From a virus, in UHGV virus genome UHGV-1607792: 16,625 nt of DNA. One strand, 5' to 3'. Below, piece after piece: positions 4,293-16,625 of this stretch. A program made the position numbers and the translations under genes. Below the pieces are notes generated by a model. The model was given only the letters and a program-made list of their open reading frames with translations. It ran no database searches and was not told where the DNA came from. Numbering within the stretch: position 1 is the first letter of the stretch; each line of letters begins with the position of its first letter.

Positions 4293-5618
4293 TCATTCTG
4301 CGATTTCCCAGATTCGTGTTCGTTTGTTTGCTATGCTTCGTACTACCGCACTGTCACCTATGCGAACATCCCATGCTCGATTTGATGTCAATGTGATGTT
4401 CTTTGTACCACCAGGCTGTTCAAATGACAAGTTTGCTTTGTCAAGTTCAAGCAGTGGAGCCAAGTCCATGCTTTGGTCAATAAGCCAATCAAAGTACTCA
4501 GCGTCAATTTGTGTCGTGTCAATGTCTGCTTCAGTTACTACAAAAATGTCATTGAGTTTATTTGGTCTAACAGTGTCACCAATTGGCTCAAATGCAGTGC
4601 TTGACAGAAGCATTGTATGTGGACGAATGTAAATGATGTCTTCATCTACAAATGCATTCATATCTTTGACGACAATTTGTGCTGCAGGAGTGTATGGCTT
4701 TGACGTCACAATTTCTGCATTGTCTGAGCCATACAAATACCGAGCCATGTAGGATGCAAAAACATCAATGCTGACATCTGCAAAATGAATGTGCTCTGGC
4801 AAAAAGACATCTTCAAGAATCATGACAAGATACTGCAGCTTCAGCAACAAATCTTGATTGTCTGCCATGTTCTTGACAAATTCAGGCATGCCACAGTTCA
4901 GATATTTGCCAGATGCTTCATTGTATTCATAAGTCAGTTGCAGCAAATTTGTGCGCTTATACATGCCTGCGTATGGCGAAATGTCATCTTGCAATGGCAA
5001 CAATGTTCTGTTGTTGCCATCAAGTGATTTGAGCACTTCATAGATGCGAACAGCTTCACTGTAGCCAAGCCAGTCTAATGCAGCATGCAACCCATTGTAT
5101 GTACCAAGCTTGCTGTCAATGTCATCTCGTCGTATAAGCCACTCTCTTGCTTTGCTATTCTGCAATATGAAGTCAACGACATCTTGTCGAATGTCATTCA
5201 GCATCAATGCTTTGTTGTAGTACTCAAGATAGTCATGACCCATATTAGACATCATGACAAGCAAACGTTCATCCGCATCAACTACTGTAGCAGTCACATT
5301 GATATGCAATGCAATGCCATCAACGACAACTTCAATTGCACAAACGTTATTGCCAACATCGACAGCATTGAATATGATATTTGCAATCATATCATCGTTG
5401 ACAAGATGTCGAGTAGTCTTATCTACAAGCAGCAATTCATTATTATCGTCAACCGCAAAGAAACTCAATGCAGACGATAGCAATCTGACTGTGCATTCAA
5501 CATTGTCTGCAAACAATGATGCAATGTTGTATGTGCCCTTTGACACATTGCCAAGCTCTATGTTAGCGCCATCATAGATGCGCTTGCCGAATCTGTCAAA
5601 AATGTTTATTGCAGCCAT
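4293..5618 (-). CDS. hypothetical protein, 441 aa
   Basis: ORF track extends to 5642 from a TTG; the first ATG is 8 codons in (MAAINIFDRF...), giving end 5618. It sits 1 nt after the TAA of the upstream small ORF (TAA-C-ATG). TGA stop at 4293-4295. Confidence 0.8.
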   Translation of the reverse strand: MAAINIFDRFGKRIYDGANIELGNVSKGTYNIASLFADNVECTVRLLSSALSFFAVDDNNELLLVDKTTRHLVNDDMIANIIFNAVDVGNNVCAIEVVVDGIALHINVTATVVDADERLLVMMSNMGHDYLEYYNKALMLNDIRQDVVDFILQNSKAREWLIRRDDIDSKLGTYNGLHAALDWLGYSEAVRIYEVLKSLDGNNRTLLPLQDDISPYAGMYKRTNLLQLTYEYNEASGKYLNCGMPEFVKNMADNQDLLLKLQYLVMILEDVFLPEHIHFADVSIDVFASYMARYLYGSDNAEIVTSKPYTPAAQIVVKDMNAFVDEDIIYIRPHTMLLSSTAFEPIGDTVRPNKLNDIFVVTEADIDTTQIDAEYFDWLIDQSMDLAPLLELDKANLSFEQPGGTKNITLTSNRAWDVRIGDSAVVRSIANKRTRIWEIAE

Positions 5619-5862: not shown

Positions 5863-7473
5863 TCAACATTCTACGTACGAGCCATCAGTGTTTTCAACAA
5901 GCACTTTGATGCTCAAGCCTACATCTGTGCCAGCTTGGCTTCTGATAAGTGGCACAATGTCTTTTGATTGTGGCGCAATGTTGCCCATATTATCAATGTG
6001 CTCGTCATTGCCAATGAACTGCACATCTACTGATTTGATGACATCAAGCTCTTCAAGTTTTGCGATTGCAGCAGAACGACTAACGAATGTCGATGCATTT
6101 GACCATGAGTCTTCTACAAATGCTTTTGCAGCATCAAGCAATTGCTGCTTGACGTCTTCTATGTTTTGCAGTACTGCAGTCTTTTTGACAAGAATGAGCA
6201 TTTGATAAAATTCAAGCTGCACAGTGTCAAATTGCACATCAGTTAGCAACACATAGTCACCAGTGTTTTCGATAGCATTGTTCAGATATTGTCTATCTGT
6301 AGAGTCGATAGTGAATTCTGCTATTGGCAATGACCAGTAGTCATACACTATTGAGCCTGCTTTGACATACTTGTCTGCAATGTTGGGCACCAACACGACA
6401 TGAATTGTTTGAGTCTCTGTATTTGACCAGACATCAAGTATCTTGTACTGACCAAAGCGTGACATGAATGCTCTGATTGAATCTGCTGAGTGCAACACAA
6501 GTGCCCTGTTAATTGAGCCTGCATGTGAACGTATAGATTCGATGTCTTCACCATTGTAACCACCTACAATGTCTGTCAACTGTTCAATGACTAATACACC
6601 CTTTGGACTTACTGCAGTAGTGTTTGCATCATACATGCCATTGACCCATTCAAATGTTGCATCATTGTCAATCAAAATGTTTCCTGCATAGCCCTCACAT
6701 GCAGTGTATTCTACATTGACGACTGCATTTTGTGCAGGAATTTGACCAGCAGTACCATTGCCAAACACAATCTGTAGTTTGCCATCATATGACCAGCGTT
6801 CAATGTACCCCTTGCTGTATCGGTCCATTTCATCAAACCCTGCATAGCGAGTCCACAGCTCATTGCCAACTGTGACAGTCAATGAATCTTCAGATACAAT
6901 CAAGTTGCGTTCTTCGATAGTGAATGTTGTCATTGACTCACCATCAGAAATATATTGCTGAGACTTGCGTTCACCTTGTCTAACTGCGAATTCATATCGT
7001 ACACCAGTCAACTCATTGTTGATGTTGAGTTGCGCAAAGTCTTGATGCATATCGATGTAGTACATCAGCGAGTTCTCTTTGCATTTAATTGCTGCGTATC
7101 GTTTAATGAACACAGTTGGACCAAGCTCTTTGACTGCGTCATATGAAAAACTCAATGCAATTTTGCCCGATGCTGCAATGCCACCAACACATTTGTAACA
7201 TGCAAGCTGTGCAAGTCCTCGTACAGATGCGGTCTGTTCTGCAGTAAGCAAGTTGTTTTCTTTTGTGCCTACTACAATTTGCGTAAAGATGAGTGACGCA
7301 AGTTCTCTGAAACTCTGAACAAGAATTCCAAAAATTGTGTACTTACCATATTGTTTCTTTGTAGAGTTCAGCAAATTCTGCAGCCAAGTATCTATAGACT
7401 GTGACACACCTGAATATGACATCTGCATTTTCTGCATCCATGTCATATTGTCACGAGTGTTATTTGTGCGCAT
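5863..7473 (-). CDS. hypothetical protein, 536 aa
   Basis: ORF track starts at a TTG (7596) and translates the tandem repeats and terminator palindrome; the first ATG is 41 codons in (MRTNNTRDNMTWMQ...), at 7471-7473. A-rich leader without SD. Stop TGA at 5863-5865. Confidence 0.8.
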   Translation of the reverse strand: MRTNNTRDNMTWMQKMQMSYSGVSQSIDTWLQNLLNSTKKQYGKYTIFGILVQSFRELASLIFTQIVVGTKENNLLTAEQTASVRGLAQLACYKCVGGIAASGKIALSFSYDAVKELGPTVFIKRYAAIKCKENSLMYYIDMHQDFAQLNINNELTGVRYEFAVRQGERKSQQYISDGESMTTFTIEERNLIVSEDSLTVTVGNELWTRYAGFDEMDRYSKGYIERWSYDGKLQIVFGNGTAGQIPAQNAVVNVEYTACEGYAGNILIDNDATFEWVNGMYDANTTAVSPKGVLVIEQLTDIVGGYNGEDIESIRSHAGSINRALVLHSADSIRAFMSRFGQYKILDVWSNTETQTIHVVLVPNIADKYVKAGSIVYDYWSLPIAEFTIDSTDRQYLNNAIENTGDYVLLTDVQFDTVQLEFYQMLILVKKTAVLQNIEDVKQQLLDAAKAFVEDSWSNASTFVSRSAAIAKLEELDVIKSVDVQFIGNDEHIDNMGNIAPQSKDIVPLIRSQAGTDVGLSIKVLVENTDGSYVEC

Positions 7474-7498
7474 ATCAGTTAATTTGTTTGTATATGTA

Positions 7499-7572
7499 TT
7501 CGAATGTGCACACATGAGAATAGGTCTCTTCGAATGTGCACATATGAGAATAGTCTCTTCGAATATGCGCAC
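7499..7572. repeat. 2.5 tandem copies of a 30-bp direct repeat; each unit stacks three palindromic cores (TTCGAA, TGTGCACA, CATATG)
   Basis: Unit 1 at 7499-7528: ttcgaatgtgcacacatgagaataggtctc. Unit 2 at 7529-7557: ttcgaatgtgcacatatgagaatagtctc. Partial unit at 7558-7572: ttcgaatatgcgcac. Lies between a terminator and the ATG of the 536-aa gene. Confidence 0.8.
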
Positions 7573-7603
7573 AAAAAGAAGAGCTTGCATATGCAAGCTC
7601 TTC
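7573..7603 (-). terminator. intrinsic (Rho-independent) terminator candidate
   Basis: Perfect 26-bp palindrome gaagagcttgcat|atgcaagctcttc (7578-7603), giving an 11-bp stem and ATAT loop, followed on the minus-strand transcript by UUUUUGUG. About 43 nt downstream of the 127-aa gene stop. Confidence 0.7.
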
Positions 7604-7645
7604 CATCGCCAAAACCTATCTAATTATGGAAACACCTCTGAAAGG

Positions 7646-8029
7646 TCAAATTATGAATCGTTTTGTGATTGGCCTGAAGTCTTCTGGCAAATCATAACGT
7701 TTTGTGATTGTTACATCGCAAACAAGCAAATCGTTCATTTGTGTAGCAGATTTTGTAATGAAACAGTTGACAGACCATTCAAACAAATGCTGCGTAACGC
7801 TATAGTTTTTGAGTGCTGTAATGATATGTGATTGAATTGTTGCTGTCGAAATGCTTCTGTGATAAAGCGCAGCATCAATCTTCTCGACATCAAACATAAT
7901 GTCAATTTCATTCAAAAAGACGCGCAATGAATCAGTTGTTTGCAATTCATCATCTTCTTGAGTTTCTACAAAGTCAATGCCTTGCAGCTCTTGTGACATT
8001 TGTGATGTATCGAAACGATTATCTGACAT
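7646..8029 (-). CDS. hypothetical protein, 127 aa
   Basis: ATG at 8027-8029, 6 nt after the TAG of the 436-aa gene; TGA at 7646-7648; followed on the minus strand by a hairpin plus U-tract terminator. Confidence 0.7.
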   Translation of the reverse strand: MSDNRFDTSQMSQELQGIDFVETQEDDELQTTDSLRVFLNEIDIMFDVEKIDAALYHRSISTATIQSHIITALKNYSVTQHLFEWSVNCFITKSATQMNDLLVCDVTITKRYDLPEDFRPITKRFII

Positions 8030-9348: not shown

Positions 9349-9783
9349 TTATAAAATTGTCAATCGATGCTCTGCATCAGTTTGCTCACTGTTAAATGTC
9401 ACTGTCACTGAGTGCTCAGTGTCATTGAAACTTGCAATGCATTCATGCTCAATGCCTGCAATTCGCAAATGCACATCAGCAAAAGTCTTGTCAATTGTTG
9501 ATTTGATGACATACACATATTGCGGTGCTTGTGCTTCAAGTCGAGTAACAGTCACATACTGATTGTCTACTTGCTCTTCACTATTTACAAGCTCAGTCAA
9601 TGTTGGCTTTACTACACTGACATGTGCAAACTGCAATGCTTTAAGTACTGCTTTGCTTCTTGAATCTACTTGTTGCTGATTTGACACCAGCAGTTTGATT
9701 GCAGAGTATGGTGTCTCTACATTAGCATCAATAGTATTGAGTGCAATAGGCTTTACAGTAGCCAAAAATTCTGCAAGTGTCAT
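9349..9783 (-). CDS. hypothetical protein, 144 aa
   Basis: ATG at 9781-9783, 1 nt after the TAA of the 176-aa frame; TAA at 9349-9351. Confidence 0.7.
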   Translation of the reverse strand: MTLAEFLATVKPIALNTIDANVETPYSAIKLLVSNQQQVDSRSKAVLKALQFAHVSVVKPTLTELVNSEEQVDNQYVTVTRLEAQAPQYVYVIKSTIDKTFADVHLRIAGIEHECIASFNDTEHSVTVTFNSEQTDAEHRLTIL

Positions 9784-9784
9784 A

Positions 9785-10285
9785 TTATGAAAGCTGAGCC
9801 GTAGTGTACCAAGTTAAGTCAGATTCATTGTACGTCAATGCAATTGTAAGAGCTTGACCAAGTTGCTGTGACAATTGCTTACATGAATCAATGAATGCTT
9901 GCATATCTGCATATGACTTTGTGTAGAACATGCACCATTCTGTTGTATTGACTGCGACATTATGAACATCTGCAAGATGACAGACTTCTACAGATGATAC
10001 ATTAAAGTCTGAGCCATCTTCATCAACATGATGCACATTGTTTGCGCACCAATACTGATACAAACGAGCTTTGTCTGATGCAGTCATGTCAAACTGCATG
10101 CGTTGAGCAATTGATTCATCGACATTATCAATGAATTGCTTTGCTGACTTTGATTCAAGCATCGCATGATGCAGTGTATGATTTGCATGCCAGTCTGGAG
10201 TGCCGATTGCTACGCTAAGCTGATTTTCAAACACAAATTGTTGTGCTTGAGCTTCTTCGTAGCATTGTGTCCATGTCTTTGTCAT
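9785..10285 (-). CDS. hypothetical protein, 166 aa
   Basis: ORF track starts at a TTG (10315); the first ATG is 10 codons in (MTKTWTQCYEE...), at 10283-10285. First gene after the terminator that follows the sigma gene. Confidence 0.7.
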   Translation of the reverse strand: MTKTWTQCYEEAQAQQFVFENQLSVAIGTPDWHANHTLHHAMLESKSAKQFIDNVDESIAQRMQFDMTASDKARLYQYWCANNVHHVDEDGSDFNVSSVEVCHLADVHNVAVNTTEWCMFYTKSYADMQAFIDSCKQLSQQLGQALTIALTYNESDLTWYTTAQLS

Positions 10286-10342: not shown

Positions 10343-10384
10343 GCAAAATAAGGCCAGACTACTCGGTTGAGCTTGTCTGGCCTT
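10343..10384 (-). terminator. intrinsic terminator candidate after the sigma factor gene
   Basis: 10-bp GC-rich stem aaggccagac (10350-10359) / gtctggcctt (10375-10384), 15-nt loop, followed on the minus strand by AUUUUG. Begins 19 nt after the sigma TAG. Confidence 0.55.
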
Positions 10385-10402: not shown

Positions 10403-11299
10403 CTACAGTGTTCCGCAAAGTAATTCACGTAAATCCATGCCAGCTTGTGTGCTGTATTGAGCAATCATGTTGCGTTCAGCTTCAGACATGCTCCAATAGA
10501 TTTTGTGAAAACTGCGTTTGATAATTGTATGAATGCCAGATGTGCTACAGTTGAGCTTCTTTGCAAGTTCTGCATGAGTTAGCAAATCAGCATCGCCAAG
10601 GCCATATACATGCGTAAGTACGAGCTTTTCATTTTGTGTGAGCTGTTCAAATGCTCTTTGCAGAATCTTTGTGTTGCGTTTGTGAGCATCCTCGATTTCA
10701 AGAACTTCTTGACCTGTTTTGAAGTCTGACCTCAAATCATTCTGAACTGGCGACCATGTATCGCCATCTTTGTCAAGTGTAGTGTCATCTTTGCTGGTGA
10801 ATTGTTTGACTTCAAGAACTCTTTCATATGCTCCACGAATACCAGTAGATAATTGTTGACTTGTCAGATTGAGTTCGTCAAGCACATATTTCTTAATCCA
10901 AGGATATGCATATGTGCTAAACTTTGCTTCACGAACTCCTGCAGGCAATACGCCTTCTACGTAATTCTTGGCTGCTATTGACAATCCAAGATTGCCTGCT
11001 TGAATGACATCATCCAATGGAACCGAGCGTTTGCCAGATGCGAACCATAAGCTTCGTGCAACTGATATGACCAATCTTAAACAAGATTTGATAAGAGCTT
11101 CACGATTTTCTTGAGTCTTCTTGAATCGAGTAACATCACAATATCGCTTTGCAGTAGCCAGCGATTTGACTTCTTCAGGAGTAAGCTCATTCTCCATCCT
11201 CATTTGCTTGAGCTCTTCCTTTGTGTATAGACGTTCTCTTGTGATTCTACCTACGTCCTTTACGTAGCCTTGATTGATTTGTGAATTTGAACCTGCCAT
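10403..11299 (-). CDS. sigma-70 family RNA polymerase sigma factor, 298 aa
   Basis: Region 2 signature: LRLVISVARSL...LDDVIQAGNLGLSIAAKNY...KFSTYAYPWIKKYVLDEL, compared from memory with the E. coli RpoD segments LRLVISIAKKY / LIQEGNIGLMKAV / KFSTYATWWIRQAI. Region 4 helix-turn-helix: LTHAELAKKLNCSTSGIHTIIKRSFHKI. ATG at 11297-11299, TAG at 10403-10405. Flanked upstream by a 133-bp AT-rich gap and downstream by a GC-rich hairpin terminator. Confidence 0.85.
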   Translation of the reverse strand: MAGSNSQINQGYVKDVGRITRERLYTKEELKQMRMENELTPEEVKSLATAKRYCDVTRFKKTQENREALIKSCLRLVISVARSLWFASGKRSVPLDDVIQAGNLGLSIAAKNYVEGVLPAGVREAKFSTYAYPWIKKYVLDELNLTSQQLSTGIRGAYERVLEVKQFTSKDDTTLDKDGDTWSPVQNDLRSDFKTGQEVLEIEDAHKRNTKILQRAFEQLTQNEKLVLTHVYGLGDADLLTHAELAKKLNCSTSGIHTIIKRSFHKIYWSMSEAERNMIAQYSTQAGMDLRELLCGTL

Positions 11300-11432
11300 G
11301 GTTGTGTAACTTATTTAGTTTTAATTTGTTATATAAATTTAATCATTTTTTGTCACATATGAAAATGTTTTGCACATTATTTTCACATAAAGTGTAAAAA
11401 AGTTATGAACATTTTGTTAACACATGTAGACA
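11300..11432 (-). promoter_or_regulatory. AT-rich intergenic region upstream of the sigma gene; candidate promoter and repeated TTTTG(T)CACAT elements
   Basis: 133 bp with no ORF. On the minus strand: GTGACA (plus 11351-11356), 17 nt, TATAAC (plus 11328-11333), about 25 nt upstream of the ATG, resembling a sigma-70 -35/-10 pair (5/6 and 5/6). Three spaced copies of ttttg(t)cacat(a/t) on the plus strand. The promoter assignment is inference only. Confidence 0.4.
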
Positions 11433-13016
11433 TCAAACCATTTCATTCAACTTGTCGACATTCTTTTTAGCGTCTGCACTTTGTACAAATGCATAGACAT
11501 TATCATAGACTTTGCTAATTGCTGCATCTGTGTAATCATAGAAGCTGTGTCGAGTTCTTGAAGTTCTGCCACCTTTGATGCCAAGTGATGCTTTGTCAGA
11601 ATCTGATGGTTTCCAATATGTTCGCCCAAACCCCGTAGATAGAATCATACTTTCCACGCCAGACCTATCTCGTGGCATAGCATGTTTCAAATGGCAAGTT
11701 ACAATGAAGTCAGTTGGAAAGTCATCATAGCCAAGCTCACTTGATGCAGGTTGAATGTCAGTCTTCGTTAAGATAAGATTGCCAATGCTTGCTATGGGTC
11801 GAAGTGGGTTTCCTAATAGCAAATGCCATTCTCCGATGGCGTCGCCCTTTAGCAAGCTATTCATAACAGGAATTGCTGGTCGACCAATAGTGTTCAAGAA
11901 TTTCGCAACAGCAAAACGTTGAAATGCAAGTTTAGCAATCTGCTGCAATTTTTGTTTTGCTGCTTCTTTTCCACCTCCGCTTGCATTCATAATGTTTTGA
12001 GCAATGCCTTTGAAGAAGTCTGTGATTGAGTTGAATGAACCATCAAGCGCATCTTGAATGATTGTAGATTCAAGTTCAAGTGCTTTGTTCCAGAACACTG
12101 ATGGCTGTCCGCCAACCCAGTAGCGACCACCTCCCCAAAAACGCGCGTCATTGTATGTGCATTGCATCACATTGCTCAACAAGTCAAGCATTGCTGTTTT
12201 GGGATTGATTCCATCAATCGACTTCAATGAATAAAAGAATTTGACAGTCAATTCATGCTCAAAGTTCAAGCCGACATCACGAATATGCGTTTGTGTAATT
12301 GAATCAATTGGGCCATAGACTTTATTGTGGTCATGTGTAGGGTCTATTGACAGTCGTGCTTTGCCACGCATTTGGTCTTTTGCATACACTGGGTCCATCA
12401 ATTTTGCCACTCGGCCCATCCAGCCACTAATGCCATAATTGCCTCCACTGTCACCACGCATTTCGCCTTGCTCCAATGCAGCAGACAATTCTTTCCAACG
12501 CATGCCAAAACTGAAGCTCAACAAATCTTCAAGTTTGTTGTTTTCACCATCAAACCACGTAATCATATGAGCGATTTCAGGTGTTTGCTGAACTGTTGTG
12601 TTGAAGATGTCATCTTGACATGGCTCAGCAAATCTGCGCAATGTTATGAGTCTGTTGTTTGGGATTTGACCAAGAAATCTGCAATATGCAAAGTCTTGCC
12701 AATCGTATGTTGATGCGCCAATGGGGTTGTTAATGATATTTGCTGCAGTAGGCGTCAAGTATTGCAGGCCTTGCAAGTCTTGGTCAAAGTACACAGTTTT
12801 GCCATCAGGCAATTGCGGTGCTGCAAATAGATTCCATGCATTGAACAAAGACTGCACACCTTGTTTTGACGCATCTTCTGCGCCACGAGGCATATCAGCA
12901 TTGAGTTTCTTTTCATAAAACCCATGCTCATAGTCTGTCTCTTGTGCAAATGCACCAGTCAGTGTGCTACTATCTGCATTGAGCTTATTGTCTTTTGGCG
13001 GAGCTATTGTAGCCAT
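11433..13016 (-). CDS. hypothetical protein, 527 aa (Gly/Trp-containing; function unknown)
   Basis: ORF track starts at a TTG (13046); the first ATG is 10 codons in (MATIAPPKDNKL...), at 13014-13016. TGA at 11433-11435. Confidence 0.8.
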   Translation of the reverse strand: MATIAPPKDNKLNADSSTLTGAFAQETDYEHGFYEKKLNADMPRGAEDASKQGVQSLFNAWNLFAAPQLPDGKTVYFDQDLQGLQYLTPTAANIINNPIGASTYDWQDFAYCRFLGQIPNNRLITLRRFAEPCQDDIFNTTVQQTPEIAHMITWFDGENNKLEDLLSFSFGMRWKELSAALEQGEMRGDSGGNYGISGWMGRVAKLMDPVYAKDQMRGKARLSIDPTHDHNKVYGPIDSITQTHIRDVGLNFEHELTVKFFYSLKSIDGINPKTAMLDLLSNVMQCTYNDARFWGGGRYWVGGQPSVFWNKALELESTIIQDALDGSFNSITDFFKGIAQNIMNASGGGKEAAKQKLQQIAKLAFQRFAVAKFLNTIGRPAIPVMNSLLKGDAIGEWHLLLGNPLRPIASIGNLILTKTDIQPASSELGYDDFPTDFIVTCHLKHAMPRDRSGVESMILSTGFGRTYWKPSDSDKASLGIKGGRTSRTRHSFYDYTDAAISKVYDNVYAFVQSADAKKNVDKLNEMV

Positions 13017-13042
13017 ATCTTCAAATGTATTTAGGATATGTA

Positions 13043-13081
13043 CCAAACAAACAAAAAGCTTGACTTATTCAGTCAAGCTTT
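13043..13081 (-). terminator. terminator-like hairpin overlapping the stop codon of the 163-aa gene
   Basis: 11-bp perfect stem aaagcttgact (13055-13065) / agtcaagcttt (13071-13081) with 5-nt loop, followed on the minus strand by UUGUUUGUUUGG. The TAA of the 163-aa gene is at the stem/loop junction. Confidence 0.5.
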
Positions 13082-13559: not shown

Positions 13560-14138
13560 TTACAGATGCACATTGACACTTGTCACAAGGTCGCAATCAA
13601 TCAATGCTTTGAGCGTGTCAATTTCATTGTAGCCAAATGCGCGTGTAGCAGCAAGCACATGATTGACATCTACTGCAGCAGTAATGTCGACTACAACAGT
13701 CTTGTCATCTTCAAGTGGCTGCAAACGCTTGATGAGTTGATGCAGCATATCGTCTGCAGGTGCGCTTAGCTGCTGTACTGGATATGCCGGTATATGCTGC
13801 ACTGGTTCAATTGGTGATGTTATTGGCGATGTAGTTGCTGGTGACACTGGTGCAATTGGTACTACATGCTGTACTGGTGCGATGACTTCAGATACAACAC
13901 TGCCATCTGCAGCAGTCGTAGATACACTTGGAATCGCAATTGGCTGAGAGAACACGTCGTCTTGAGGGCGATTCCATGTTTCAATTTCAGACAATGCATA
14001 AAGACGATTTTGACTGTCCCATGCCTTATCAGCTTCTTCGTCAATTGCAACAATTGTTCGAATTTCTGCCGTTGCTGGCCTATCGCCGTTTTCGAGCTGT
14101 TCAATGACTCTGATAGGCGCTATTGATGTTCGTGCCAT
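13560..14138 (-). CDS. hypothetical protein, 192 aa, with Pro/Val-rich low-complexity linker
   Basis: ORF track starts at a TTG (14195) inside a palindromic intergenic region; the first ATG is 19 codons in (MARTSIAPIRV...), placed at 14136-14138 by codon arithmetic from the track. Linker PVQHVVPIAPVSPATTSPITSPIEPVQHIPAYPVQQ. TAA at 13560-13562. Confidence 0.7.
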   Translation of the reverse strand: MARTSIAPIRVIEQLENGDRPATAEIRTIVAIDEEADKAWDSQNRLYALSEIETWNRPQDDVFSQPIAIPSVSTTAADGSVVSEVIAPVQHVVPIAPVSPATTSPITSPIEPVQHIPAYPVQQLSAPADDMLHQLIKRLQPLEDDKTVVVDITAAVDVNHVLAATRAFGYNEIDTLKALIDCDLVTSVNVHL

Positions 14139-14167
14139 GTTTGGATTGTTTTTTATATTGTACAATA

Positions 14168-14239
14168 TGCAAAGTGCTTTTGCACTTTGATGCAAAGTAC
14201 TGCGTACACAACATGCAATGCATAAATTTGCATTTATGC
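14168..14239. promoter_or_regulatory. palindrome cluster in the leader of the 192-aa gene
   Basis: caaagtgc-tttt-gcactttg (14170-14189) with a near-copy caaagtac (14193-14200) that could pair with the same central arm; and gcataaat-ttgc-atttatgc (14220-14239). Confidence 0.5.
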
Positions 14240-14310: not shown

Positions 14311-16625
14311 TTATCGTATGATGAATGGTTTGTTGGTATCTTCAATAATCATTGAGCCGATGCCATGTAACTCTTGAGTAACCTCGACAGATACGTCTTG
14401 TGCAGTGTTGTACGAGCACTTGAATGCTGCAACTCGACTAAATGCGTCAATGTCTGAGTAACTGAGTTCATCGACTTGCATTGAGATTTCACCAATTGCT
14501 GGCGTAGTCTTTGATGGTGTCATTGTGATGTCATGCAGCCAGCCCGGATTGCCAACTATGACTGCTGTCAATGATTCGCCATCAATTGGGTTGATGATTT
14601 CATAGTTGAAGCTTAAAGTCTTTGCAGTATCATCAGTTGTTGCCGATGCAGGTGTAATGTTGATTGTTGTTACGCCCTTAGCAGCTTGAACAACTTGTGC
14701 TGTGACATCTTGAGCATTGATGTGAGAGAACTTAACTGAACAACTGCGTTGTTCTGTCGTCAAGTTGCGGTCACATTCAATAGTCAAGTAGCCCCTGCCA
14801 GTATTATCGTCATATTCGAAGTTTGTATCGGTAAATGTGCCATCATTGTCAAGCACTGCATATGACAACTGCTGGCCTGCAATTGGGTTGCCAACAGTAA
14901 TTTCGAACTGTACTTGAGTATCTGTCGACTTCAATTGAGCATTCATTGGTTCGACAGTTATCGTTGACATGCCTTGAGCTGCTTGTGTGATGCTGACCGT
15001 TACATTGTCAGCAGTCATGTATGACAGTCTCAAGTATAAGTTACGAGTAGCTGTTGCAGTGTTGATGTCAAGCGCAAATTGTATTGTGCCGGCTGACATA
15101 TTAACTACAGGTTCGCCAACAAAGCCAGAGCCCTCTGTCGTAACTGTCAGTGTTTCACCTTCAATAGGGTTGATGATGCTAAAGTTAACTGTGAACGAAC
15201 CGCCATTAGCTGCTGCGTTGATTGTCAATGGTTCGGCATTGATGACTGTAGCTTCTTTAGCAGCTTGAGTAAGCAAGACTGCTACATTGTCAGCAGTTGG
15301 ATATTGCAGTACAATATTTGCTGTACGAGCAGTTGTTTGCAATGTCTTGTCATAATCAAATGTAATCTTGTCATCAGCAACTTGAACGTTGTGAATCCAG
15401 CTTTCTGTTGCATATGCAGTGACTGCTGCACCAGCAAAGCCATTACGAATTTGATATGCAATTTCAGCTGAACCACCTGCTGCATTGAGTGACATAGAGC
15501 TTGTAACAATGATTTCTGGCCTTGTTGAAACACCTGTACTGTATTGAACTACAGATGCAATTACACGAGGCTCAAATATGACAGCATTTGCAGAGCCGCC
15601 AAATGTAGGTGTTGCAATCACATAGATTGGCCAAACTCCACTTGATGCGACATTACGTAAGATTGCTTGATAATGCAGTTCATTGCATGCATCTTGCAAT
15701 TCACTCCACGTTTTTGTAGTGTCAATTGATGTCAAGCATGCTGGCAATACTGCGCATGTTGATGGCTTATCCGCATCAATGGGCATTGCATTGCCACCTG
15801 CTATTGGCTTGTAGCTCAAGTCAACTTTGACTGATGCATAGCCATTGCCATACACAATGAATGGTATAGTGATATCGAACAAAATATCGACTGTTGCAGG
15901 CATGTTCAGATATGCAGGCAGCGGTATGAGTGTTTGCATTGCTGTCGTGCCTGGTACGTGGTCATCGAATGATTCAACATACACAGGTGGTGTCAAGTCA
16001 TCTTTATGCGCATATTCTGCGTGAGTGTGGTCTGAATGCGACACTGTGCTTGCATAACCAGAACCACCAAAGTTCTTATTAAATGCAGAGCCCTTTGCTT
16101 CTTCAGTTAATCTGCCAGAGCCATCATATGACAATACTGTATTTGATGCACCGACACCTGCTGCAAGATGATTTGAGCCATCAATGAAGACATGTTTGTA
16201 TTGACGTTCAAACAAATGAGCATCAAAATTGTCAAATATCGAATTGAACAACTTTTTGACTGCAGATGCTGTAGGCAGATGTTTGTTTGCATTTGCGCCA
16301 TCGATAATGATGCTTGACCAATTGTCTGAGCTCTTGAAGATGCTAAGAAGCATATCAACAACTTTGCCAGTAGCATCTGTGCCAAGAACACTTGCACCAG
16401 GCAATTTCATCAATTGTAAGTCGACTGTTGCAGCAAGTTTAAGCAGCTGTTTTGTCAATGTCAGAATGTCTGTGACAGCACCAGCATCTGACAATGCAGC
16501 AATGCGATATGACTGATTGATGAGTTGCGCAAACTTATACGCACGAATGAATGACTCTCGCTTTGCTTCTGCATCCAAGCCTTTTGCCAAGAACAACTCA
16601 TCATATTTCAGATTTGCATATGACA
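14311..16625 (-). CDS. large repeat protein with four tandem BACON-like/Ig-like domains at the C-terminus; 5' end lies beyond window end
   Basis: The frame is open to the last base of the window; the track's start at 16596 is a TTG and upstream codons continue in frame. TAA at 14311-14313. Four homologous 50-100 aa repeats, each ending (T/N)A(D/Q)(D/N)V(T/S/A)V.(V/I/L)TQ(A/E)(A/L).G, with internal NPI(E/A/D)G and R-T/S-A motifs. Confidence 0.8.
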   Translation of the reverse strand, partial: SYANLKYDELFLAKGLDAEAKRESFIRAYKFAQLINQSYRIAALSDAGAVTDILTLTKQLLKLAATVDLQLMKLPGASVLGTDATGKVVDMLLSIFKSSDNWSSIIIDGANANKHLPTASAVKKLFNSIFDNFDAHLFERQYKHVFIDGSNHLAAGVGASNTVLSYDGSGRLTEEAKGSAFNKNFGGSGYASTVSHSDHTHAEYAHKDDLTPPVYVESFDDHVPGTTAMQTLIPLPAYLNMPATVDILFDITIPFIVYGNGYASVKVDLSYKPIAGGNAMPIDADKPSTCAVLPACLTSIDTTKTWSELQDACNELHYQAILRNVASSGVWPIYVIATPTFGGSANAVIFEPRVIASVVQYSTGVSTRPEIIVTSSMSLNAAGGSAEIAYQIRNGFAGAAVTAYATESWIHNVQVADDKITFDYDKTLQTTARTANIVLQYPTADNVAVLLTQAAKEATVINAEPLTINAAANGGSFTVNFSIINPIEGETLTVTTEGSGFVGEPVVNMSAGTIQFALDINTATATRNLYLRLSYMTADNVTVSITQAAQGMSTITVEPMNAQLKSTDTQVQFEITVGNPIAGQQLSYAVLDNDGTFTDTNFEYDDNTGRGYLTIECDRNLTTEQRSCSVKFSHINAQDVTAQVVQAAKGVTTINITPASATTDDTAKTLSFNYEIINPIDGESLTAVIVGNPGWLHDITMTPSKTTPAIGEISMQVDELSYSDIDAFSRVAAFKCSYNTAQDVSVEVTQELHGIGSMIIEDTNKPFIIR
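14362..15405 (-). repeat. tandem array of four protein-level repeats (BACON-like beta-sandwich modules) inside the 761-aa CDS
   Basis: Approximate residues 398-745 of the track protein. Repeat ends: ...NVAVLLTQAAKE / ...NVTVSITQAAQG / ...DVTAQVVQAAKG / ...DVSVEVTQELHG. Repeat starts: ATVINAEP / MSTITVEP / VTTINITP. Diverged at nucleotide level. Confidence 0.6.

Follow-up and report, generated by a model that had tools for sequence, protein, structure and literature searches.

The DNA analysed here, UHGV virus genome UHGV-1607792 (16,625 nt, hereafter the window), carries a gene for a sigma-70-family sigma factor, and the leader of this gene contains a 12-nt motif. An initial annotation noticed that the motif recurs in 30-bp repeats upstream of a 536-aa gene and proposed it as an element-specific promoter or operator common to both leaders. 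The locus raises the question of whether one regulatory element serves the sigma gene and the 536-aa operon alike. The motif itself is present at both places, as TTTTCATATGTG at 11354-11365, TTCTCATATGTG at 7539-7550 and TTCTCATGTGTG at 7509-7520, all on the minus strand; the interval first given for the sigma copy, 11347-11364, was off by a few bases. We favour, with a probability of roughly 0.68, the answer that the two loci are different things: a genuine promoter of the sigma gene, a separate late promoter for the structural operons, and copies that resemble the sigma box within a variable repeat.

The promoter of the sigma gene

The sigma gene and the parts of its leader are as follows.

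10403..11299, minus strand: sigma-70-family sigma factor gene, 298 aa, with regions 2 and 4 (Pfam, phrog and PDB matches)
11354..11365, minus strand: upstream box TTTTCATATGTG, about -36 to -25, the motif of the initial annotation; it matches the box of phage MA9V-1
11342..11353, minus strand: 12-nt spacer ACAAAAAATGAT from the upstream box to the -7 box; equal spacing in MA9V-1 and PAU
11334..11341, minus strand: -7 box TAAATTTA, of the Bacteroidota sigma-A type TAnnTTTG with A as final base; TAAWTTTA in nine lineages
11325..11333, minus strand: TATAAC hexamer and predicted transcription start (about 11329, placed from the position of the -7 box), then a 5′ untranslated region (UTR) of ~30 nt
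10351..10383, minus strand: terminator-like hairpin after the sigma gene, AGGCCAGACAAGCTCAACCGAGTAGTCTGGCCT then TATTTTG; putative function, from a reading of the sequence

These parts form a bipartite layout, TTTTCAnnTGTS, 12 nt, TAWATTTR and then TATAAC (11329-11368, minus strand), in intergenic DNA on the coding strand, with 42 nt between the -7 box and the sigma ATG. Since the -7 box spans -12 to -5, transcription would start near 11329, and it would probably end at the hairpin at 10351-10383. With a promoter and a hairpin of its own, the sigma gene appears as a separate unit in the late cluster. No Shine-Dalgarno sequence was found in the 5′ UTR, and the leader folded no better than its shuffled versions (z = -0.27). 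A 7-nt inverted repeat in this leader, TGAAAAT/ATTTTCA, was dropped as a candidate, being broken in L005 (L and G numbers are our handles for the sequences compared).

The same layout was found in cultured relatives. The window corresponds to the late-gene region of a gut myovirus (~175 kb) from the PAU / MA9V-1 / Lak clade, and MA9V-1 encodes a sigma protein 28% identical to that of the window. A search of the complete 213.5-kb MA9V-1 genome with the pattern TT[TC]CA.ATGT[CT]-N12-TA[AT][AT]TTT gave 23 matches on the gene strand and none on the other, all in intergenic DNA or immediately before a start, at distances of 25-115 nt from the start codon. Among the genes they precede are those for sigma, a topoisomerase subunit and an NAD-dependent DNA ligase, besides numerous small ones. 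When variants of the box were allowed, ~40 sites were obtained, which represent most intergenic -7 boxes of that genome. A strand and position bias characterizes the full layout (23 versus 0 in MA9V-1). The 8-mer core CATATGTG of the motif also occurs four times in coding sequence of the window, three of these being on the non-coding strand.

The MA9V-1 intergenic pattern reads aTTTTCAnATGTC, 12 nt, TA(A/T)ATTT(G/A), then (c)TAtAAttAAAAC, with TTTTCAnATGTC as upstream box, AAATAAAATGAT as an example of the 12-nt spacer and either TATATTTG or TAAATTTA as -7 box. The window box TTTTCATATGTG agrees with the MA9V-1 consensus TTTTCATATGTC at 11/12 positions. A weight matrix made from MA9V-1 sites only (full 40-nt matrix) assigned 32.1 bits to the window sigma site at 11329-11368, and elsewhere in the window, on both strands, nothing rose above 8 bits. 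In phage PAU, the sigma promoter reads GTTTACATTGTC-AAATAAATTGAT-TATATTTA-TATAAC with a 12-nt spacer, in the layout and spacing of the window. As the PAU sigma gene is the first of its record, this promoter was read by joining the record end to its start; the ends of the record cut through it.

Across the 9/9 lineages examined, exactly one TAAWTTTA box was found per sigma leader, followed in relatives by TATAAC, TATATC or TACTAT. The upstream box remains recognisable in the 55-62% relatives, yet is more diverged. Within the lineage it takes the forms TTTTCATATGTG, TTTTCACATGTG, TTTTCACGTGTG and GTTTCACATGTG, changing mainly at positions 7-8, which are variable in MA9V-1 too. Taken together, layout, spacing and conservation argue that the sigma-leader motif is the upstream half of a genuine, clade-conserved promoter.

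The motif had also been said to overlap a -35 hexamer, GTGACA. The position is right, as the motif does lie in the -35 region, but the hexamer is not conserved: relatives read GTCAAA, GTCGTT, GTGAAA or TGAATT in its place. A sigma-70 promoter GTGACA-N17-TATAAC can be read in the window; a consensus scan did not list it, and the downstream partner of the box is the -7 box TAAATTTA instead. Flavobacteriia have a -7 box TAnnTTTG as their sigma-A signature, and in Flavobacterium it spans -12 to -5 (PMC9723704). The sigma-leader box fits 7/8 positions of TAnnTTTG, its final G being replaced by A in all nine sigma leaders, while the MA9V-1 sites are split between G and A. The -33 TTTG was not found ~19-21 nt upstream of the -7 box, where the window and MA9V-1 have TTTTC (C for G) and PAU has TTTAC.

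We looked for further members of this promoter type near the window and in relatives. A scan with TTTTCATATGT-N13-TAnnTTT gave at least 120 matches, those listed being single matches on contigs other than the two 175-kb ones, and 11 stretches matched a stricter pattern of 34 nt, among them one in the 149023 genome and two in a single 65-kb contig; such matches are insufficient to define a promoter class in the window lineage. No further box/-7 promoter was found in the 10 kb past the downstream end of the window (L160), which hold small genes on both strands. At the baseplate wedge gene of PTm1, the synteny differs, and only ordinary host-like promoters and no sigma gene were seen in that region. 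In PAU, a different intergenic motif, GAAACTGAAACTTTTGATAAAACTGTAGTA(T/C)(A/T)AT, is repeated (L154 ~1841-1880 and ~2270-2320). Because of this repeated motif, the promoter repertoire of PAU is taken to differ from that of MA9V-1; the sigma promoter is conserved nonetheless. We found no description of either promoter motif of this study in the literature, and the MA9V-1 genome paper (PMC10537231) gives no intergenic promoter set.

Two side observations concern this neighbourhood. Between the 527-aa gene and the sigma leader, some strains carry a variable gene of 352-445 aa (L004 8840-9898, L156 4833-6170, L158 2763-4091) which is missing from the window (site ~11420 to 11433) and from L005, with its junction just upstream of the leader's TGTTAACAA; it had no Pfam match. 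In the L160 contig (IMGVR_UViG_3300045988_149023), outside the window, an inverted repeat of ~80 nt with a G7/C7 tract brackets a ~3-kb segment with genes on both strands (~11400-11480, ~13680-13740 and ~14396-14475). A third, partial copy lies inside this segment, which could be invertible or mobile.

A Bacteroidota host for the phage is a reasonable inference from the start codons, which have no Shine-Dalgarno sequence, and from the hosts of the nearest cultured relatives. By protein similarity these relatives are Chryseobacterium phages MA9V-1/2, phage PAU, Tenacibaculum phages and Prevotella Lak-like megaphages, with Chryseobacterium, Tenacibaculum, Prevotella and Sphingobacterium as hosts, that of PAU being a Sphingobacterium (PMC3738902). 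Megablast of the window region against cultured phages gave no match; at the DNA level, the window shares 95-97% identity with two IMG/VR contigs of ~175 kb and 94-95% with other assemblies. The sigma protein matches Pfam Sigma70_r2 (4.9e-8), Sigma70_r4 (1.8e-6) and phrog_351 (4.7e-25), and its region 2 matches SigA/RpoS structures in PDB. A survey of jumbo phages records that this phage group encodes sigma factors, and nothing beyond (PMC7824862).

The late-type promoter of the structural operons

All long open reading frames (ORFs) of the window lie on the minus strand. The baseplate wedge gene, which is the 536-aa gene in question, and the late-type promoters of the window are listed below.

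5863..7473, minus strand: baseplate wedge subunit gene, 536 aa, true start ATG at 7471-7473 (phrog_219, 2.7e-22)
7485..7501, minus strand: late-type promoter GAATACATATACAAACA of the baseplate wedge operon, 25 nt from its T to the ATG; 17.3 bits
10299..10315, minus strand: late-type promoter TTGTACATATACAAACT before the 166-aa gene; 21.3 bits, exact TACATATACAAA
13029..13045, minus strand: late-type promoter TGGTACATATCCTAAAT before the 527-aa gene; 16.2 bits
~14165-14185 (approximate), minus strand: late-promoter variant TTGTACAATATAAAAAAC, one base longer, ~30-45 nt upstream of the 192-aa gene start; read in the leader sequence

The motif (G/A)TACATATA(A/C)AAAC lies 25-37 nt before the ATG of structural genes and usually just past a terminator. 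In seven lineages it precedes 16 structural genes or more, and PAU has it too. With a matrix derived from 16 sites we scanned 132 kb of sequence from the seven lineages, only 5.8% of it intergenic. At 10 bits or more, 25 matches were intergenic and in sense orientation and 17 were coding sense, with two intergenic and six coding matches in antisense. At 16 bits or more, all matches were intergenic and in sense orientation except one, inside a public 584-aa call in L014, which we read as a mis-called start. The matrix also recovered sites outside its training set.

The leader of the PAU baseplate wedge gene gp17 carries TTTATACATATAAT with the 5′ UTR AATTAACTGAAATG, which matches the 5′ UTR AATTAACTGATATG of the window. 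The 536-aa baseplate wedge operon is predicted to be served by a different, clade-wide promoter, TACATATACAAAC. We found no conserved -35-type or -30 element upstream of the late promoters; a weak excess of TTCA near -20 (6/18 late sites) was noticed post hoc. The late promoter resembles those of phage T4 as a single -10-type element with no -35, upstream of structural genes and strand-specific. No gp55 or gp33 homologue was found in the window.

The start of the wedge gene needed correction. Public gene calls give 565 or 575 aa with a start inside the 30-bp repeat, and the mechanical ORF reaches 577 aa with a TTG start (window 5863-7596, minus strand); these over-long calls arise because the repeat is in frame. 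The ATG at 7473 yields a protein of 536 aa, the size found in orthologues and, in particular, in the relative L155, whose wedge protein is 81% identical. By tblastn the product matches annotated baseplate wedge genes of Tenacibaculum phages, and a neck/head-closure protein is encoded downstream of its gene. Elsewhere in the window, the 761-aa protein (14311-16596, minus strand) matches a BACON domain below threshold (23.4 bits, cut-off 25 bits), which would fit a Bacteroidota-associated surface/fibre protein. An Rfam scan of the window gave no match.

From the two promoters a simple order of events may be proposed. Host RNA polymerase with the host sigma-A would read the -7 box and give early/middle expression of the phage sigma, the upstream box providing either the contact in the -33 region or the binding site of a phage accessory factor. 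The late (TACATAT-class) promoters of the structural operons would then be read with a factor encoded by the phage, this sigma being the simplest candidate. Sequences, spacing, conservation, strand and position bias and repeat variability form the direct basis of this scheme, and the promoter function of the sigma-leader element, the transcription starts, the holoenzyme for each class and the timing are deduced from them.

The upstream box could instead be a -35-type element read by the phage sigma itself, the box and TAWATTTR then defining its regulon rather than a set of host sigma-A promoters. A protein with both region 2 and region 4 would be expected to require a promoter of two parts, and no upstream element accompanies the late motif. 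The sigma promoter is moreover conserved where other promoter motifs differ (elsewhere in PAU, GAAACTGAAAC...TGTAGTATAAT), and its box does not have the host -33 G. However, a self-dependent sigma would need another route to start. The only one in the window is read-through from the late promoter at 13029-13045 before the 527-aa gene, which may reach the sigma gene, no terminator being seen between the two. The -7 box also follows the host sigma-A consensus, to which about half of the MA9V-1 sites conform perfectly (TATATTTG), and in MA9V-1 no other class with a -7 box is abundant, as fits early promoters read by the host. We hold autoregulation of this kind to be doubtful, while giving it serious weight.

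The 30-bp repeat upstream of the baseplate wedge gene

The copies of the motif in the baseplate leader lie within a tandem repeat.

7577..7604, minus strand: intrinsic terminator hairpin after the 127-aa gene, 12-bp stem and T-run (hairpin/fold)
7499..7568, minus strand: 30-bp tandem repeat, 2.4 copies, X-Y-X-Y-X (TRF score 119, period 30)
7539..7550, minus strand: distal box-like copy TTCTCATATGTG, at a Y|X junction (sequence)
7509..7520, minus strand: proximal box-like copy TTCTCATGTGTG, with one mismatch, 10 nt upstream of the late box TACATATA (sequence)

The repeat sits between the terminator (7577-7604) and the late promoter (7485-7501). Its parts are X, TGTGCRCAT(A)TTCGAA, and Y, GAGAC(C)TATTCTCAT(A/G), and the motif copies are the Y|X junctions. 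As both belong to one tandem repeat, the window holds two independent motif loci and not three. The -7 box of the sigma promoter is absent 12 nt past either copy: GACCTATT stands there for the distal copy and CATATACA for the proximal one, where the late box starts at +10. The full MA9V-1 matrix gave no match above 8 bits at these copies.

The repeat is variable among strains that are 94-97% identical, with 2.4 copies in some and 1.4 in L156, L157 and L158 (L156 ~10000-10090, L158 ~7930-8015), the strains with 1.4 copies being 94-95% identical. These strains lack the unit that carries the distal copy; all five strains retain the proximal copy, which has become TTCTCATGTTTG in L156/L157. In the 81% relative L155 (1-138), the terminator is directly followed by the late promoter, with no repeat and no box, and the same holds for PAU. 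Within both 175-kb genomes, the unit core was found at this locus only. The baseplate copies are thus most likely junctions of a young variable-number repeat whose resemblance to the sigma box is fortuitous, and they are probably not the sigma promoter element. The candidate promoter of the initial annotation therefore holds for the sigma copy, given its conservation in MA9V-1 and PAU, and is not supported as an element shared with the 536-aa operon.

The match had been considered unlikely by chance. Taken alone it is unremarkable, since in 164/400 dinucleotide shuffles (41%) the sigma leader agreed at 11/12 positions with some other same-strand intergenic region of the window. The statement holds in part, once the box is fixed independently: with the 12-mer taken as a functional box on the evidence of MA9V-1 and PAU, the remaining 509 nt of coding-strand intergenic DNA contained a copy with one mismatch or none in 25/5000 shuffles, and in 5/1000 in a second run (p ~0.005, or about 0.03 corrected for six lineages). 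The apparent significance is inflated, as the finding was selected for the match itself. In five related lineages (L006, L009, L010, L012 and L014), the same box-specific test was not significant, the sigma box having no counterpart in their late-gene leaders. With a box-only matrix, the baseplate copy scored 9.8 bits, compared with 12.9 bits (9617-9632) and 9.6 bits (4771-4786) inside genes.

Several observations nevertheless weigh against the separation of the two loci that we propose, or limit its reach. Because the box-specific shuffle test is significant, pure coincidence is not a comfortable explanation of the baseplate copies. They keep the strongly conserved box positions (TT-TCA..TGTG) apart from T3, which is C, and the proximal copy survives in five of the five strains, at a distance from the late box (CATGTG, 12 nt, TA) equal to that in the L010 sigma promoter. 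As regards the sigma promoter, recognition by an unmodified host sigma-A is not assured, as C replaces the G of the -33 TTTG. In the ~47 kb of the window lineage and the ~32 kb of PAU that were read, no gene other than sigma has the box/-7 architecture, which was seen to form a promoter class in MA9V-1 only.

The points that concern the baseplate copies favour a different account of them, as functional upstream boxes recently recruited by tandem duplication. A protein that binds TTTTCAnnTGTS (sigma region 4 or a MotA-like activator) would also bind TTCTCATGTGTG, 10 nt upstream of the late box, and the resulting hybrid promoter would couple baseplate expression to the programme of the sigma gene, the distal copy being an extra site. 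The spacing from CATRTG to the TA of the late box agrees with this, as do the pattern TAnATnTA, which the late box TACATATA and the -7 box TAAATTTA have in common, and the AAATTAA(AA)C that continues both leaders. Set against recruitment are the lack of the copies in the 81% relative and PAU and of any counterpart in the late leaders of the five lineages named above, the drift of the proximal copy, and the dispensability of the unit with the exact match, as judged by the 1.4-copy strains. No such box accompanies the other late promoters of this genome, box-only scores of equal size occur inside genes, and selection for the match inflates its significance. Recruitment is in our view unlikely. 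A combined version, in which the box is the -35-type element of the phage sigma, with clade-wide autoregulation, and was captured by tandem duplication to give a hybrid late promoter tuned by copy number in a phase-variation-like manner, is quite improbable.

Alternatively, the 30-bp units might be an operator array bound by a dimeric regulator of the phage, with the ATGTG-rich sigma leader as a further target. Each unit opens with a perfect 10-bp palindrome, ATGTGCACAT or TGTGCACA, and the 30-bp period places these three helical turns apart. ATGTG occurs four times in the 133-nt sigma leader against about 0.2 expected, an enrichment that is lost on correction for the 5-mers and regions examined. 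The baseplate leader folds far better than shuffles (z = -5.8), mostly owing to the terminator. The sigma leader, however, has no palindrome, only ATGTG on the same strand; neither 175-kb genome has the unit core at a second locus; the number of units varies, and they are missing in close and distant relatives. Moreover, unit A reads GCGCAT, GTACAT or GCGCGC depending on the strain, and the palindrome nearly copies the (A)TGTACAT core of the late promoter, the three units scoring 4.2-7.0 bits with the late matrix, in register. We consider such an array very improbable, and the shared operator first suggested is probably wrong: the unit core is restricted to one locus in the two 175-kb genomes, varies in copy number and is absent from L155 and PAU.

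Every X segment of the repeat resembles the late promoter core weakly and in register, with a score of 12.6 bits in one strain. A derivation of the Y segment from a decayed late promoter was rejected, only 6/16 positions being identical. High-scoring tandem repeats were also observed in related phages (L010 10978-11057, 13439-13503, 13975-14013 and 15808-15867; L009 3906-3959 and 10888-10925; G152 (L004) 2572-2611). All are intergenic and lineage-specific in sequence, and they often end at or overlap a late promoter.

Comparison with known promoter systems

The large Bacteroidota phages of this group, including relatives of the Prevotella Lak megaphages and lineages common in the human gut, have no transcription map. 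The present analysis provides two testable promoter definitions, a bipartite one (for the sigma gene and, in MA9V-1, for dozens of replication-side genes) and a one-piece late one that extends from gut phages to PAU. With both, the sequences of uncultured relatives can be used to predict gene timing and to correct start codons, as for the over-called baseplate wedge gene. As MA9V-1 and its Chryseobacterium host are cultured, the predictions are directly testable. The promoters are new members of familiar types in a poorly studied phage clade, and their novelty is modest.

Bacteroidota sigma-A promoters were reportedly defined by Bayley et al. in 2000 as -33 TTTG / -7 TAnnTTTG. The sigma promoter resembles them in its -7 box TAAATTTA (TATATTTG in many MA9V-1 sites), which comes close to TAnnTTTG, in a T-run at the place of the -33 element, and in short, A-rich leaders without a Shine-Dalgarno sequence; the map of transcription starts of F. 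psychrophilum served as the sigma-A reference (PMC9723704). It differs in that the phage -33 region reads TTTTC, with no G, and continues into a conserved CAnnTGTS foreign to host promoters, and in that the final -7 base is A in all nine sigma leaders. Compared with the MA9V-1 set (OR050627.1), the box, the 12-nt spacer, the -7 box and the downstream TAYWAY...AATTAAAAC are all the same. There, however, the layout has 23-40 genome copies, compared with the sigma gene only in the ~47 kb read of the window lineage, and the last base of the box is C, where the window has G.

Phage T4 middle promoters combine a MotA box at -30 with a host -10 element and depend on sigma appropriation. The sigma promoter is similar in layout only, with a phage box in place of the host upstream element at a fixed distance of ~12 nt from a host-type downstream element; in sequence, it bears no relation to the MotA box, and no MotA or AsiA homologue was found, though no search aimed at one was made. 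The T4 gene for the late sigma, gene 55, is expressed ahead of the late genes, whose promoters, TATAAATA, are read by gp55, gp33 and the clamp. The late-type motif TACATATA(A/C)AAAC is likewise a single AT-rich -10-type element with no conserved -35, ~25-35 nt before structural starts, and its L006 and G152 variants include TATAAATA itself. Unlike the T4 element it has a TACATAT core, and the sigma encoded here, with 298 aa and regions 2 and 4, is not a minimal sigma of the gp55 type.

Lastly, the 30-bp repeat behaves like variable-number tandem repeats or promoter-proximal slippage repeats in its unit length, its 1.4 versus 2.4 copies and its loss in the next relative. It is unlike them in its precise seat between terminator and promoter and in the resemblance of its palindrome to the promoter core. 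Because of this placement and this promoter-like palindrome, a modulatory role for the repeat is possible.

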